A DNA stretch of 64,000 nucleotides from Escherichia coli (GTDB lineage Bacteria > Pseudomonadota > Gammaproteobacteria > Enterobacterales > Enterobacteriaceae): assembly GCF_003334315.1 (NCBI RefSeq), contig NZ_QOWR01000015.1, one strand, 5' to 3'. Made by a program: the position numbers. Positions 21,001-39,000 of the stretch are shown piece by piece (the stretch's first letter is position 1; each line of letters starts with the position of its first letter).

Positions 21001-24000
21001 ATTTTTCACCTGTAATATTTCTGCCAGCACGCTGATGGCGATCTCCTGCGGCGTTTCCGCACCTATGTTGTAACCAACGGGCGCATGTAAACGGGCAATA
21101 TGTTCTTCAGCCACGCCTTTCTCACGCAATTGACGCAGGAAAAGCTGAACCTTGCGACGACTTGCCAGCAACCCCAACCATGCAATGGGCTGTTCAATGA
21201 GTTTGTCGAGGGCTTCACGATCCTGATTATTCGTGGCAATCAGGACAAAATTATCAGGGCGAATATCCAGTGCTTCCACTGCCGCACCAAACGACTCAGC
21301 ATGGAGAAGCGTGGTTGATGGTGGGAATAGTTCAGGATTGAGGCTTTCGCGATAAATATCGGCAACGGCAATATCAAATCCTAATAGCGCCGCACTCTGG
21401 GCTATCGCCCGGTTGACATGCCCCGCGCCAATCAACACCAGACGTGGACGCATACCATGGACGCTGATAAATACTGACATTGCACCTCCACAATCTGACC
21501 CGACAGCATCCGCACCGTTACGAGCCATACGTCCATGGAATAATCGCGGCTTACGTTCCTGCAATGCCTGAAGCGACTCTTCAATCACCTTCCGCTCAAC
21601 CATTCCGCCACCAATTGTACCGACGATAGAACCATCGGCGCGCACTAACATTTGTGCAGAATGGCGGGGAGTCGAGCCTCGGCTATCAACAATTTGCGCC
21701 ATCGCAAACGGACAATTTTGCTCTTCGAGTTTTGCAGCCTCTGTGAAAATATTCATACCAACCTCAATGGATATCCTTTCAGTAACCCGGAATACCCGGG
21801 CCGCTAATTCACAAATCTGCGCGCGATTGCAGGATGTTCTTGTATATCGCCCAGCCAGATTGCCTCTACGTCATGTTGTTGCAGCGGTTGAAGGAGCTCG
21901 CTTTGTGCAATCGCATTCTCACATTGAGAAAAACGGTTAATGAACCAGACTCGCCGACAACCTTGCGGTACGTTTTTAAACGCCCCCTGAGGGTGGCGAA
22001 CCAGCGCAACGAGATCGCTCAGTTGCAAGGTTGCATCAGGTGTTAACCCGGTAATATCAGCAAACTGCGACCAGCGATGGACATTTTCTGTGCTCACTTT
22101 CGCGCCCAAAGTATGTCCTCCCATCACAGCAATCACGCAGCAACTGCTTTTGGGTATGCAAGGTTCGTGCTCATCAGGCGCTTTTAACGGCATTCCACGC
22201 GAGCCATCTGCTTCAATGAGAATTACGTCACACTCTGGTCGTTGCACCAGTGCATCAATCGCTTCTGGCGTAAATCCCTGCACTTTTCCCTGGTTCGCTT
22301 TCCAGCTGTGAAAACAAAATGAAATGGGGGATGTAAGAGACGCATGAAGAAGCATGGCGGGATCACGACAGAAAACCACGGGCCAGTGTGACTTTGGCAT
22401 AAACATATGTGTCGTCGTAGTGATTAACACACGCCTGCCGCGAGTCTGGAGCAGTTCTGCCAGCCAAAAAAGCAAGCTGGTTTTCCCCCCAGCACCAACA
22501 ACAGAAATCACAGTGGGACGTTTCTGCGCACCTAAATCAATGAATAATGCCGATGGGTCAACTATACTTTTCACGAGTCTTTATGACCTCTCTGGGATAA
22601 ATTACCCCCAACTTAATCCAACAGGAAGTAACGCAATTATCAGGCGTTATTAGCCCCTATAAATAATGGAACCACTATGTCAGCCATCGACTGTATAATT
22701 ACCGCTGCCGGATTATCATCAAGAATGGGGCAATGGAAAATGATGTTACCCTGGCAACAGGGAACAATTCTTGATACAAGTATCAAAAATGCGTTGCAGT
22801 TTTGTAGCCGAATTATTTTAGTCACCGGCTATCGTGGTAATGAACTGCACGAACGTTATGCGAACCAGAGTAATATCACTATTATTCACAACCCAGATTA
22901 TGCCCAGGGTTTACTAACATCAGTCAAGGCCGCAGTACCCGCAGTGCAAACAGAACATTGTTTTCTCACCCACGGTGACATGCCAACCCTCACCATTGAT
23001 ATTTTTAGAAAAATCTGGTCGTTACGAAATGATGGCGCAATACTGCCACTCCATAATGGCATCCCCGGCCATCCGATTTTAGTGTCAAAACCATGCTTGA
23101 TGCAGGCATTCCAGCGACCCAATGTCACCAATATGCGTCAGGCACTCCTTATGGGAGATCATTATTCCGTCGAAATAGAAAATGCAGAAATAATTTTAGA
23201 TATTGATACTCCGGACGACTTTATTACAGCGAAGAAAAGGTATACTGAAATTTAGAAAATGTAGTTAAACGATTGCGTTCAAATATTTAACCCCTCCAGC
23301 ACTCTTTATCATAATGATAAGGAATCACTGATTTTGAGAAAAGAGAAAAAGTGATAAATGGGCTGGCAATAATAATTTTCAGGAGTGATTTTAATTCTCA
23401 TTTGGCACCTGTGAGTTCATTCACAAAAAGCCCTTAAGTTTCGAGCCGCCTCACATTTTTTTATATTTCCCGCCAAACCTGGCAAGAGTGGTGCGATTGT
23501 TGCTCTATCCCCCTAAACCACCGGATTTCTCAACACCGGTCACTCAATGATATCTGTATAAGCTAAGGAGAGGGTTATGGGGGATATTATGCGTCCCATT
23601 CCGTTTGAGGAACTTTTGACGCGCATATTTGATGAATACCAACAACAACGCTCAATCTTTGGTATTCCCGAGCAACAGTTTTACTCACCCGTAAAAGGTA
23701 AAACTGTTAGCGTCTTCGGTGAAACCTGTGCCACTCCCGTCGGCCCTGCCGCTGGCCCGCACACGCAGCTCGCGCAAAATATTGTCACTTCCTGGCTGAC
23801 TGGCGGACGCTTCATCGAACTAAAAACCGTCCAAATTCTTGACCGCCTGGAGCTGGAAAAGCCTTGTATCGATGCCGAAGACGAGTGCTTTAACACCGAA
23901 TGGTCTACCGAATTTACCCTGCTTAAAGCCTGGGATGAATACCTCAAAGCCTGGTTTGCCCTGCACCTTCTCGAAGCGATGTTCCAGCCTTCTGATTCCG

Positions 24001-36000: not shown

Positions 36001-39000
36001 TCTAATAGATTCTCCGCGCCTTTCAGCGCGGAGATTTCTTTCAGAGAGGATTCTCACCGCTGGCAACAATACGCTGCTGGCGGACTCGCCTGAGTTCTCT
36101 TTCAGTAAGCAACTGCAGCGCCTGTGTTGGGCAAGATTCAACGCAGGCTGGCCCCTCTTCCCGCTGTTCACAGAGATCGCATTTCACGATTTGTTGCCGG
36201 GTATCCCCCGGCAATGACTGAATGGTGATCATCCCAAACGGGCACGCACTGACGCAGCTCTGACAGCCAATACAACGGGCAGAATTGGCCTGCACCACCT
36301 GCTCGCCCATCGTCAGCGCCCCCACGGGGCAAGCGCCAACACAAGGGGCGTTTTCACACTGATGGCACATCACCGGCGCACTGATGCTGTCCAGTCGCTG
36401 TACCTTCAGCCGGGGTAAAAAGACATCGGCATTCAACTCCTGTTCTGAAGGGTGAGCGACCACACAGGCCACTTCACAAGTACGGCAGCCAATACAGTCA
36501 GCCGGATTAACGATAATTAACGATTTCATCACGATGCCTTCGTATCAAACAGAGTTAACATATCGCGCGCCGCCTGCCTTCCTGCGGCCATGGCAGTGAC
36601 AACCAGATCCGCGCCATGAACTGCATCCCCACCAGCAAAGACTTTTTTCAGATGCGTCTGGGTAGGTAAATACCCAACGTCGCCGGTTTGAATCAGGCCC
36701 CATTTATCGAGTTTAATTCCGCTGCCCTGCAACCACGGCATGGCATGCGCCTGGAAACCAAAGGCCATAATGAGAACATCTGCGGGCAATTCAAACTCTG
36801 AACCCGCAACCGGACGAGGACGACGGCGACCATCCGGCCCCGGCTCACCCATGGCGGTACGAATCAGGCCCACCGCAGTTAAACGCCCATCTTCGTCACA
36901 AGCGATATATTGCGGCTGAACATTGAATTGAAACTCGACACCTTCCTCGCGCGCATTGACCACCTCTTTGCGCGAGCCCGGCATACTGACTTCATCACGA
37001 CGATACGCGCAGGTCACGCTGGCGGCATTGAGGCGGATGGAAGTCCGCAAACAATCCATTGTCGTATCGCCACCGCCCAATACCACGACTCGCTTACCTT
37101 CCACGTCCGTCAGCGGATACTCTTCAGACTCCGGCAACCCCATGAGCTGGCGGGTATGGGCAGTCAAGAACGGTAGAGCCTGAATGACACCGGGCGCATC
37201 TTCATGCGGCAGATCAGCTCGCATCATCCCGTAAGTCCCCACGCCGATGAAAACTGCATCATATTCAGAAGTTAAATCGCTAAAGGTAATATCGCGGCCA
37301 ATTTCACAGTTAAGATGAAAGTCGATTCCCATTGCGGTGAATATCTCTCGCCGCTGGCTTAATACCGTTTTATCGAGTTTGAAAGGAGGTATGCCAAAAG
37401 TCAGCATACCGCCAATTTCTGGATGGCGATCAAAGACATCAACCTGAACTCCTGCGCGCGCCAGAATATCAGCACACCCTAACCCTGCTGGCCCAGCGCC
37501 AATCACCGCCACTTTTTCGCTACGGGGAACAACTTTGCTGACATCGGGACACCAGCCCATCGCCAGCGCGGTATCGGTGATGTAGCGTTCCAGATTACCG
37601 ATAGTGACTGCGCCAGAGTGATCTTTCAAAGTACATGCGCCTTCACAAAGACGGTCCTGTGGACATACCCTGCCGCAGATTTCTGGTAAGGAACTGGTCT
37701 GGTGGCAAAGTTCTGCCGCTTCAATAATCTTTCCTTCCTGTACCAGACGGATGTAATCCGGAATAGCGTTATGCAGCGGGCAATGCCAGTTGCAGTTAGC
37801 TTTTTCGGCACAATAAACACAGCGGTCACTCTCATAAGTCGCTTGTTGTGGATCCAGCCCGCAATATATTTCGCCAAAGTGGGTTTTCCGTTCACTCGCT
37901 GAAATTTTATCTGCGCCTTTACGCGAGTTAACGGGGAGCAACGCTGCACTGCGAGATGGCTGAGCGTCTGATGACGCTTTTCCTGCTGCCGTTTTGCGCT
38001 GGCGGGCCACCTTTATCTGCTGTAACCCTTTATCGTCCATCAGTCGTAACGCCTGTGTTGGGCAGACTTCAATACAGGCTTGCGTGCCGGAACTGCGCTG
38101 GTTACAAAGGTCGCATTTCTGCGCAATCGTATCGACCATCTCAACGACGCCAAAGGGGCAAGCGATTGCGCATCTTTTACAACCAATACATTTTTGCTCG
38201 TCCAGTTGTACGCTATCGGACTGGAAAGTCAGAGCATTAACCGGACAAGCCGTAACGCAAGGGGCATTGTTGCAGTGATGGCAGGCCACCGGATTCGCAG
38301 CCTGGCCTTTTCCTACAACGTGGATACGCGGTCTAAAGTCACTGTGACTCAGCGGCCAGTTTTCTTGATTGTGTGCCACCGCACAGGCAATTTCACAAGC
38401 ATGACAGCCTATACATTCCGCAGCTTCAGCAGCGATAAACTTATTCATTTGCATCCCTTTCATTTAATGAGTTATGTCTTCTCAAATTTCGCGATGCAAT
38501 AAACGGGCATATATTAGGTAGCATGACCGTTTTAATTATAATTTTGCGACTGAGTTCAAATTATTGCCCCTCAATCTATGCCGCTTTCATTATTTCAACA
38601 TTGCCGATCAAAAGAGTGCTATCCAGATAAAAACGATTAAATGCGAGAGTACGACATGCCAGAATGATTAATGAAATATCAATATGAGAAAATTACAGAT
38701 AATTCCATTGTCAGGTTCTCTTCTCATTTTCGTGGTTTAACCACGATTATGTGATTGCCTCCGCAATTCCTGTCTCTAACTCCCCTTCCTCGCAAAAACT
38801 GGCACTCCACGAGCATGTGTTTAGACAGTTTCATTAACGTAAACGGTTGCTTTTTACTCTGGCGGGCGAAAGGAGAAACACTGATGAGCGCCATAGATTC
38901 CCAACTTCCCTCATCTTCTGGGCAAGACCGCCCAACTGATGAGGTTGACCGCATATTATCACCAGGAAAGCTGATCATACTCGGTCTGCAACACGTCCTT

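Follow-up and report, generated by a model that had tools for sequence, protein, structure and literature searches.

A GltD-like electron-transfer module in two proteins of the Escherichia coli urate island, YgfK and YgfT, with evidence for distinct redox roles

One ancient GltD-like electron-transfer module has probably been reused in two machines of the anaerobic reductive uric-acid pathway, as part of the reductase YgfK and in YgfT, which probably delivers electrons from formate. The evidence supported two distinct redox roles rather than redundancy or a recent duplication. A two-protein division of labour in the urate pathway is already present in the literature of 2019-2025, and the domains common to YgfK, YgfT, and AegA were pointed out previously (Liu et al. 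2022). The synteny with fdhF described below provides new supporting evidence for electron input through YgfS and YgfT.

The window, a stretch of 64,000 nucleotides from E. coli, contains the ygeV-ygfT purine/urate island. The 14,872-bp span from ygfK to ygfT was 100% identical to E. coli chromosomes in a genome comparison, and was found at a coverage of at least 80% in 5162 of the 5426 complete genomes. The genes of this span are the following.

23577-26675, + strand: ygfK, encoding 1032 aa (annotation mapped to the window)
26678-28006, + strand: ssnA, an amidohydrolase acting with YgfK, for ring cleavage of reduced 2,8-dioxopurine (annotation)
28057-28836, + strand: ygfM, FAD subunit of the enzyme converting urate to 2,8-dioxopurine (annotation; biochemistry from the literature)
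28833-31703, + strand: xdhD, Mo/[2Fe-2S] subunit of the same enzyme (annotation; biochemistry from the literature)
31868-36005, + strand: xanQ, guaD, and ghxQ, purine transporters and a guanine deaminase lying between both flavoprotein genes (annotation)
36041-36529, - strand: ygfS, encoding a HycB/HydN-type ferredoxin of 162 aa with four [4Fe-4S] motifs (16 Cys)
36529-38448, - strand: ygfT (uacF), encoding 639 aa, a HycB/HydN-type four-cluster ferredoxin domain followed by a GltD-like module

Both flavoprotein genes had intact open reading frames and full-length matches to NCBIfam equivalogs, where YgfK scored 1774.6 bits against a cut-off of 835.3 (TIGR03315, model positions 1-1012 of 1012) and YgfT scored 1503.4 bits against a cut-off of 1154 (NF009451, model positions 1-639 of 639). 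Pseudogene status was thereby ruled out for either gene. A reading of the sequence alone had described the two genes as bracketing a second hydroxylase operon. Their positions are as claimed, but the bracketing is only geometric, as ygfK is itself the first gene of a ygfK-ssnA-ygfM-xdhD unit. The adjacency of ygfK and ssnA was also found in Pantoea, K. aerogenes, S. arizonae, and Intestinirhabdus.

YgfK and YgfT share an identity of 34% over 428 residues (BLASTP, E = 7e-51; YgfK 458-849, YgfT 217-632). Both include the Fer4_20 and Pyr_redox_2 domains and the VAVIGAGPAGL motif, in agreement with the shared dinucleotide-binding domain noticed earlier. Recent near-identical duplicates were ruled out by this identity of 34% over the approximately 430 residues of the GltD-like core. 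YgfT reaches an identity of 60% with GltD and 55% with AegA, whereas for YgfK the values against all E. coli paralogues were only 30-34%. The comparison with PreT and GltD that the sequence-only reading had proposed was made in a neighbor-joining tree, where the YgfK-family proteins formed a deep clade of their own, the YgfT orthologues (bootstrap 86) fell inside the GltD/AegA clade, and neither grouped with PreT. The two proteins are hence paralogous at the superfamily level, but they are not each other's closest paralogues, since YgfT is nearest to GltD and AegA. In addition, a GGGxTxMD...YRR motif was aligned in YgfK, YgfT, AegA, and GltD, and was absent from the NAD-dependent PreT. We take the YRR motif to mark NADPH specificity; NADPH use, demonstrated experimentally for YgfK, is predicted for YgfT.

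The domains of YgfK were assigned as follows, in residues of the protein.

~1-440: DHODH/DPD-type FMN barrel
453-532: Fer4_20, first part of the GltD-like module
552-839: FAD/NADPH part of the GltD-like module
898-948: cysteines of a C-terminal 2x[4Fe-4S] ferredoxin domain
~960-1032: C-terminal tail

The barrel was undetected by sequence and profile searches, and it is the AF2 model (pLDDT 93.4, pTM 0.91) that places a predicted DHODH-like FMN-binding TIM barrel at the N-terminus. Taking the cluster cysteines of GltD (C47, 50, 55, 59, 94, 98, 104, 108) as reference, all eight aligned in YgfT (Fer4_20, E = 6e-37), whereas six aligned in YgfK (E = 3e-16, a partial model match), with L452 and T499 standing in for the other two. 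The eight-cysteine set of GltD is therefore complete in YgfT and a variant ligand set in YgfK. The six retained cysteines were invariant across 49 YgfK-family proteins, as were all nine in the C-terminal domain (C898/901/905/908/912 and C938/941/944/948), where the Pfam Fer4 matches were weak. Together with the 16 further cysteines of YgfT, these account for the multiple ferredoxin-type clusters ascribed to both proteins.

A C-terminal 2x[4Fe-4S] ferredoxin domain is a feature of dihydropyrimidine dehydrogenase (DPD) and is present in YgfK, but the canonical DPD order (FeS, FAD, NADPH, FMN barrel, FeS) is not. In DPD/PydA and PreT-PreA the barrel follows the GltD-like module and precedes the ferredoxin domain, whereas in YgfK it is N-terminal, a permuted order. 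YgfK is only 30% identical to PreT and showed no detectable sequence similarity to PreA. The substrates also differ, being 2,8-dioxopurine for YgfK (from the literature) and uracil or thymine for DPD. Fold and sequence comparisons both place the GltD-like core of YgfK closer to NfnA, StnC, and NfnB than to DPD, with the best matches in the NfnABC/StnABC proteins (PDB 9n5u_A, 8oh5_C, 9bov_A). These show that a GltD-like module can be joined to other large redox domains, among them formate-dehydrogenase-like ones, but they lack a DHODH-type barrel and act in electron-bifurcating transhydrogenase complexes rather than in ring reduction. YgfK works like DPD, but its classification as a DPD orthologue is not warranted, and it is not sister to PreT in the tree.

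The role of YgfK in the urate pathway is settled. Its reduction of 2,8-dioxopurine with NADPH, a dearomatisation like that of DPD/PydA, has been demonstrated experimentally (10.1101/2025.05.19.654654; 10.1101/2025.04.24.650524), and the activity is NADPH-dependent and selective for this substrate (2025 literature). A coupled assay of YgfK and SsnA yielded ureidomethyl-hydantoin (10.1101/2025.05.19.654654), and 2,8-dioxopurine builds up in a ygfK mutant of C. sporogenes. The pyrimidine-ring-type reduction of a purine intermediate, offered earlier as an example, is thus borne out for YgfK. The NCBIfam/RefSeq name 'putative selenate reductase subunit YgfK' and the nearby selenium-cofactor genes yqeB and yqeC would instead suggest a subunit of a selenate reductase. 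We find this hardly credible, as selenate is neither required for nor stimulating to YgfK activity in the literature, the domain layout, with its DHODH-type barrel, resembles that of DPD, and the selenium genes nearby carry annotations for selenium-dependent molybdenum-cofactor biosynthesis.

YgfK is best described as a self-contained, domain-permuted analogue of DPD. By analogy with that enzyme, electrons likely pass from NADPH to FAD, through four [4Fe-4S] clusters, and on to an FMN in the N-terminal barrel, where the pyrimidine ring of 2,8-dioxopurine would be reduced and thereby made open to hydrolysis by SsnA. An invariant Cys231, in the segment 'STMHGCPP', is a candidate active-site acid. 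This assignment is inferred from pig DPD, whose active-site general acid is Cys671.

The second protein, YgfT, has a different architecture.

1-157: HycB/HydN-type four-cluster ferredoxin domain
~170-639: GltD-like module

Its N-terminus (residues 1-170) contains 16 cysteines in four CxxCxxCxxxC-type motifs. Over its C-terminal 470 residues YgfT aligns with E. coli GltD at 60% identity and retains every one of the eight cluster cysteines, together with the motifs for FAD and NADPH. The GltD-like unit binds two [4Fe-4S] clusters and FAD and has a site for NADPH. AegA has the same HydN-like and GltD-like architecture and is 55% identical over the full length. YgfT is located away from gltB, is coupled to ygfS, and lies in the urate island beside uacT; it also has the added N-terminal four-cluster ferredoxin and a genetic tie to formate-dependent urate use. 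In domain and profile searches, no FMN barrel or other substrate domain was found in YgfT, where the HydN-like and GltD-like parts fill all 639 residues. Because it lacks the barrel, YgfT is incapable of a DPD-type reduction, and it is an electron-transfer module rather than a second step enzyme in the sense that YgfK is one. Distinct redox roles, which the sequence-only reading had favored over redundancy, were upheld by the low identity and the different architectures.

These observations bear on the suggestion that YgfT and AegA back up YgfK by performing its purine reduction under other nutrient conditions (Liu et al. 2022). The shared Fer4_20 and Pyr_redox_2 domains, the urate induction of both genes, and the only partial block in E. 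coli ygfK mutants (Liu et al. 2022) are consistent with such a role. However, the missing substrate domain, the accumulation of 2,8-dioxopurine in the C. sporogenes mutant, and the fact that the GltD-like modules of GltS, DPD, and Nfn only feed a separate catalytic domain (PMC8097209) make it very improbable.

The stop codon of ygfT and the start codon of ygfS overlap by one base (TGATG, 36531-36527), which indicates translational coupling and agrees with the earlier claim that ygfT is coupled to a separate ferredoxin. YgfS, with its four motifs, is 46% identical to residues 1-157 of YgfT. Among solved structures, YgfS comes nearest to HycB of formate hydrogenlyase (7z0s_B, E = 6e-31) and to HycB3/4 of hydrogen-dependent CO2 reductase (HDCR), and the same holds for the YgfT N-terminus. 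HycB and HycB3/4 are the ferredoxin partners of FdhF-type enzymes. These proteins and HydN each have four [4Fe-4S] motifs, as do YgfS and YgfT 1-157, but the latter pair occurs without a hydrogenase partner, and YgfT joins its ferredoxin domain to a flavoprotein in one chain. Scores of 137 and 121 bits for YgfS and the YgfT N-terminus, against the HydN equivalog cut-off of 260, identify them by sequence as paralogues of HydN, not HydN itself.

In six other enterobacterial genera fdhF adjoins ygfT-ygfS, the six loci being phylogenetically non-independent and representing three arrangements. In Pantoea and Erwinia, ygfT-ygfS-fdhF form one operon, and the fdhF product scored 878 bits on TIGR01591 (cut-off 666) with Cys at position 140. 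In K. aerogenes, S. enterica arizonae, and Intestinirhabdus, fdhF(Sec140)-uacT is divergent from ygfT-ygfS. The Cedecea locus likewise has fdhF divergent from ygfT-ygfS but lacks urate genes in the vicinity, and no molybdenum hydroxylase is encoded within 10 kb. The E. coli fdhF gene is unlinked to the ygfT-ygfS locus. No report of the fdhF adjacency was met in the literature searched. Because of this adjacency in six genera, an electron-input module of FdhF, YgfS, and YgfT is supported. As summarized in a review, the formate- and FDH-H-dependent degradation of urate requires aegA/ygfT genetically (Iwadate & Kato 2019, via PMC8097209). Against the module stand the lack of fdhF linkage in E. 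coli, the absence of a separate ygfS gene from Atlantibacter and one Citrobacter, and negative results for the paralogue AegA, which showed no two-hybrid interaction with FdhF and had no effect on FDH-H dye-linked activity (PMC6004506).

We tentatively propose, with slightly less than even confidence, that YgfS-YgfT, with the paralogue AegA, is the missing physiological electron-input device of the pathway, whose HycB-like ferredoxin pair docks FdhF to form either a soluble formate:NADP+ oxidoreductase or a wire from formate to the molybdenum enzyme. If so, the formate-dependence of urate degradation in E. coli would be explained. YgfS and the YgfT N-terminus would most likely dock formate dehydrogenase H (FdhF), and formate-derived electrons would cross as many as ten clusters before reaching the flavin of YgfT, which would reduce NADP+ to the NADPH used by YgfK; both the direction of flow and the acceptor are inferred. 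To our knowledge, no formate-to-NADPH route of this kind has been described in E. coli. YgfT is not required for the chemistry, because XdhD-YgfM and YgfK run in vitro on NADH or NADPH alone.

Electrons from YgfT/YgfS could alternatively pass straight to the molybdenum urate reductase (XdhD-YgfM, or the fused Mo+FAD enzyme of other genera), with YgfS-YgfT serving as a direct iron-sulfur wire from FdhF. Formate (approximately -430 mV), not NAD(P)H, would then drive the conversion of urate to 2,8-dioxopurine, and the GltD-like flavin would be a side entry or exit for NADPH. The urate/xanthine couple (approximately -360 mV) lies below that of NAD(P)H, and a lower-potential donor would therefore help. 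In Pantoea, Erwinia, Mixta, and Buttiauxella, ygfT is directly beside, and divergent from, molybdenum hydroxylase genes; moreover, the Clostridium enzyme uses no NAD(P)H, and the physiological donor of the initiating molybdenum enzyme is listed as unknown (2025 commentary). However, NADH serves in vitro as the donor for urate reduction by E. coli XdhD-YgfM (10.1101/2025.05.19.654654), the intact NADPH motif in a part 60% identical to GltD would be superfluous for a pure wire, and the Cedecea locus has no such hydroxylase nearby. We consider the wire rather unlikely, and less likely than the delivery of NADPH.

YgfT could also be an NfnB-type flavin-based bifurcating or confurcating enzyme, combining NADPH, FdhF-reduced ferredoxin-like clusters, and a third partner. 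In NfnAB, bifurcation is carried out by the GltD-like module, the possibility has been raised for AegA (PMC8097209), and NfnB, NfnA, and StnC were strong sequence matches to YgfT. This appears improbable, as no NfnA-like or second flavin partner was encoded beside ygfT in any locus examined, and YgfT clustered with the non-bifurcating GltD rather than the Nfn proteins in the neighbor-joining tree.

For each urate, the pathway takes up four reducing equivalents. Gut bacteria that degrade urate anaerobically influence the urate level of the host, and with it hyperuricaemia and gout, and the enzymes of the pathway are being engineered into probiotics. If YgfT-YgfS does couple FdhF, adding ygfT-ygfS-fdhF to engineered strains could raise flux, and FDH-H would have a new physiological role outside formate hydrogenlyase.

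Four regulatory or terminator-like sites were located around these genes.

23488-23504, + strand: sigma-54 binding site GTGGTGCGATTGTTGCT, ~70 bp upstream of ygfK, an exact match to the ChIP-seq site for ygfK in PMC4591121
31713-31728, no strand assigned: GC-rich hairpin GGCCGCTTCGGCGGCC just past the xdhD stop, terminator-like on both strands (consensus match only)
36011-36034, no strand assigned: hairpin between the convergent ends of ghxQ and ygfS, a terminator-like site prediction with an inverted repeat visible in the sequence
38495-38511, - strand: weak sigma-54 binding site TATGCCCGTTTATTGCA upstream of ygfT, an exact match to the ygfT site in PMC4591121

A single copy of the ygfK site is present in the window, where chance alone would give 0. 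The ygfT site, which has a low motif score in PMC4591121, also occurred once. A sigma-54 site ahead of each gene, together with the induction of both by urate, points to co-regulation of ygfK and ygfT and favors their shared place in the pathway. The hairpin at 31713-31728 likely marks the end of the ygfK-ssnA-ygfM-xdhD unit.

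The 14.9-kb span from ygfK to ygfT matches E. coli chromosomes at 100% identity and was found in 5162 of the 5426 complete genomes. RefSeq annotation of a matching record identified the window as the ygeV-ygfT purine/urate island, where the coordinates given by the sequence-only reading (23577-38448) run exactly from the start codon of ygfK to the start codon of ygfT.

Features of the purine/urate island (genes from the RefSeq annotation)
7823-11485, xdhABC
ygeV, ygeW-dpaL(ygeX)-ygeY-hyuA-arcC(yqeA), yqeB/yqeC, and mocA, genes of the island
23488-23504, + strand, published sigma-54 ChIP-seq site for ygfK (PMC4591121)
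23577-26675, + strand, ygfK, then ssnA, ygfM, and xdhD
xanQ, guaD, and ghxQ, listed after ygfK-ssnA-ygfM-xdhD and before ygfS
36041-36529, - strand, ygfS
36529-38448, - strand, ygfT, with uacT listed next
38495-38511, - strand, published sigma-54 ChIP-seq site for ygfT (PMC4591121)
31713-31728 and 36011-36034, hairpins

The two hairpins probably delimit the transcription units, and both ygfK and ygfT are induced by urate (Liu et al., 2022). Upstream of the island, two IS5-family transposase genes (ISKpn26-like and IS5, 677-1657 and 4570-5550) and a truncated ygeQ pseudogene (5617-6279) adjoin yqeH/yqeI/yqeJ in the annotation. Just past uacT, the very small annotated ORFs yqfG (41 aa, + strand) and yqfH (23 aa, - strand) overlap each other at 40334-40527. 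The stretch from prfB (42700-43798, - strand, annotated with a programmed +1 frameshift) through lysS, recJ, dsbC, xerD, and the gcvTHP operon to the 6S RNA (ssrS, about 63498-63681) consists of ordinary housekeeping features.

Both flavoproteins are encoded by intact, full-length ORFs, with scores of 1774.6 bits for YgfK (cut-off 835) and 1503.4 bits for YgfT (cut-off 1154) against their NCBIfam equivalog models. They have the Fer4_20 and Pyr_redox_2 domains in common and share 34% identity over 428 residues (BLASTP, E = 7e-51). A recent duplication or a pseudogene was ruled out by this low identity and the full-length matches to both models. The VAVIGAGPAGL motif ascribed to the two proteins was found in each, and the proposed coupling of ygfT to ygfS was borne out by an overlap of the ygfT stop with the ygfS start (TGATG). 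The claim that the two proteins are paralogues held for their shared GltD-like domains, but not in the sense of sister paralogues. YgfT matches E. coli GltD at 60% identity over its GltD-like part and AegA at 55% over its full length, while YgfK shares only 30-34% identity with YgfT, AegA, GltD, and PreT. In a bootstrapped neighbor-joining tree of 401 columns, where deep nodes were weak (bootstrap 35-70) and DPD/NfnB were represented only by two PDB fragments, the YgfT orthologues (bootstrap 86) fell inside a tight GltD/AegA clade, the YgfK family formed a separate clade, and PreT and NfnA/StnC were also separate. YgfK was thus not grouped with PreT, the comparison suggested by the sequence-only reading, and a specific relationship between the two was rejected within the limits of those deep nodes. 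Among solved structures, the YgfK core was closest to NfnA, StnC, and NfnB, followed by GltD and then DPD, and YgfT was closest to GltD. These comparisons, contributed by the present analysis, assign YgfT to the GltD/AegA group and not to that of YgfK.

Residues 1-440 of YgfK are blank in Pfam, and its termini have been named "domains of unknown function" (10.1101/2025.04.24.650524), while an FMN site in the protein was inferred from modelling (10.1101/2025.05.19.654654). An AF2 model built from an alignment of 49 diverse full-length homologues (pLDDT 93.4, pTM 0.91) contains an N-terminal DHODH-type FMN barrel, a relationship that was invisible to sequence and profile methods. A Foldseek search with the whole model was dominated by matches to the GltD-like core and was uninformative on the barrel. 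C-terminal to the GltD-like module, nine cysteines are invariant among the 49 homologues (CxxCxxxCxxCxxxCP and CxxCxxCxxxCP). Within the module (residues 452-511, window 24930-25110), YgfK retains six of GltD's eight cluster cysteines and has L452 and T499 instead of the other two. AegA likewise has a Thr at the equivalent of GltD Cys94. Asp454, beside Cys455, is nearly invariant in the YgfK family and could serve as a cluster ligand in place of cysteine, for which DPD and NfnB offer precedents. In the barrel, the invariant segment TLSTMHGCPP (residues 223-233, window 24242-24275) is part of a loop that aligns with a shortened equivalent of the mobile active-site loop carrying Cys671 in DPD, and the Cys231 of this segment is a candidate general acid. 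The cysteine set and the barrel together lead to the prediction that a single YgfK chain holds the full DPD cofactor complement with the barrel shifted to the N-terminus; the model provides independent structural confirmation of this predicted permuted architecture. YgfK would work as DPD does but differs from it in domain order, and because of this order it was not classified as a DPD orthologue.

This anatomy accompanies a published function. The urate pathway was reconstituted in two preprints (10.1101/2025.05.19.654654, also PMC12507026, and 10.1101/2025.04.24.650524), where urate is reduced to 2,8-dioxopurine by XdhD-YgfM, 2,8-dioxopurine is reduced by YgfK with NADPH, the ring is opened by SsnA, and HyuA, YgeW/YqeA, YgeY, and YgeX complete the route to pyruvate. 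The YgfK step corresponds precisely to the "pyrimidine-ring-type reduction of a purine intermediate" proposed from sequence. YgfK as a selenate reductase was ruled out, as selenate plays no role in its activity (10.1101/2025.04.24.650524). Two distinct redox roles are likewise supported, with YgfK reducing 2,8-dioxopurine and YgfT having no substrate domain and formate-linked genetics. Both the observation and its interpretation are already in the literature: the domain sharing was noted in 2022 (Liu et al., 2022), the YgfK biochemistry was published in 2025 (10.1101/2025.05.19.654654, 10.1101/2025.04.24.650524), and the YgfT genetics date from 2019 (Iwadate and Kato, 2019, J Bacteriol, as relayed in Liu et al., 2022, and PMC8097209). 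The residual novelty concerns only the mechanism of YgfT.

A HydN/HycB-type ferredoxin domain (residues 1-157) and a GltD-like module (about 170-639) with an intact GltD-type NADPH motif (YRR) make up the whole of YgfT, and a substrate-reducing domain is absent from its 639 residues. Lacking the catalytic barrel, YgfT is unlikely to act as an isofunctional back-up for YgfK. YgfS and the YgfT N-terminus share 46% identity and each contain 16 cysteines in four cluster motifs. Among solved structures, both come closest to HycB of E. coli formate hydrogenlyase and HycB3/4 of hydrogen-dependent CO2 reductase, ferredoxins that partner formate dehydrogenases of the FdhF type. In Citrobacter sp. R56 and Atlantibacter, ygfT is present with no separate ygfS gene after it, so that YgfS may not be essential, or the ferredoxin domain at the YgfT N-terminus may stand in for it.

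YgfT orthologues were found in Enterobacterales only. A genome contig scan with YgfT yielded just 12 loci, mostly Escherichia and Citrobacter loci and true gltD. Ten loci looked up individually, with several more from the scan, make up the synteny sample, which is small and phylogenetically non-independent. In this sample, fdhF adjoins ygfT-ygfS in six genera and three arrangements. In Pantoea and Erwinia, the genes form a ygfT-ygfS-fdhF operon, whose FdhF scores 878 bits against TIGR01591 (cut-off 666) and has Cys at active-site position 140. In Klebsiella aerogenes, Salmonella enterica arizonae, and Intestinirhabdus, fdhF-uacT is divergent from ygfT-ygfS, and fdhF has an in-frame TGA at codon 140 in a CCARV-U-HGPS motif. 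In Cedecea lapagei (locus L012, 7293-12414), fdhF (Sec140) and ygfT-ygfS stand alone as a divergent pair, and no gene of the urate pathway lies within 10 kb, which suggests that an FdhF-YgfTS module may also serve functions other than urate degradation. A linked fdhF was not found in Escherichia, Citrobacter, and Atlantibacter, which have the XdhD-YgfM type, nor within 10 kb in Mixta, Buttiauxella, and Arsenophonus. Chance would hardly explain why these genes, otherwise unlinked, lie side by side in three different arrangements, and this synteny, contributed by the present analysis, supports an FdhF-YgfS-YgfT module.

In published genetic work, urate degradation that depends on formate and FDH-H was tied to aegA and ygfT (Iwadate and Kato, 2019, via Liu et al., 2022, and PMC8097209). 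Combined with the anatomy of YgfT and YgfS and the fdhF synteny, this gives a best model in which formate would be oxidised by FdhF, electrons would pass through YgfS, the YgfT ferredoxin domain, and the two GltD-type clusters to FAD, and NADP+ would be reduced there to supply NADPH for YgfK. Counter to this model, an AegA-FdhF interaction was absent in two-hybrid assays (PMC6004506), and in vitro the pathway needs no electron donor other than NAD(P)H (10.1101/2025.05.19.654654, 10.1101/2025.04.24.650524). The main rival is a direct wire from YgfS-YgfT to a molybdenum enzyme, and a minor one is that YgfT is a bifurcating enzyme. Five of the six fdhF-linked clusters, all except that of Cedecea, also include ygfK-ssnA or a molybdenum hydroxylase.

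The hydroxylase of the fdhF-linked urate clusters (Pantoea, Erwinia, K. aerogenes, S. arizonae, and Intestinirhabdus) is a fused Mo+FAD protein of ~1071 aa with a separate [2Fe-2S] subunit, which takes the place of XdhD-YgfM there and in the urate clusters of Mixta and Buttiauxella. The fused protein shares no more than 26-29% identity with E. coli XdhA or XdhD, and its scores fall below every NCBIfam Xdh cut-off. It represents a third kind of molybdenum hydroxylase, and presumably acts as the urate reductase in the clusters that carry it.
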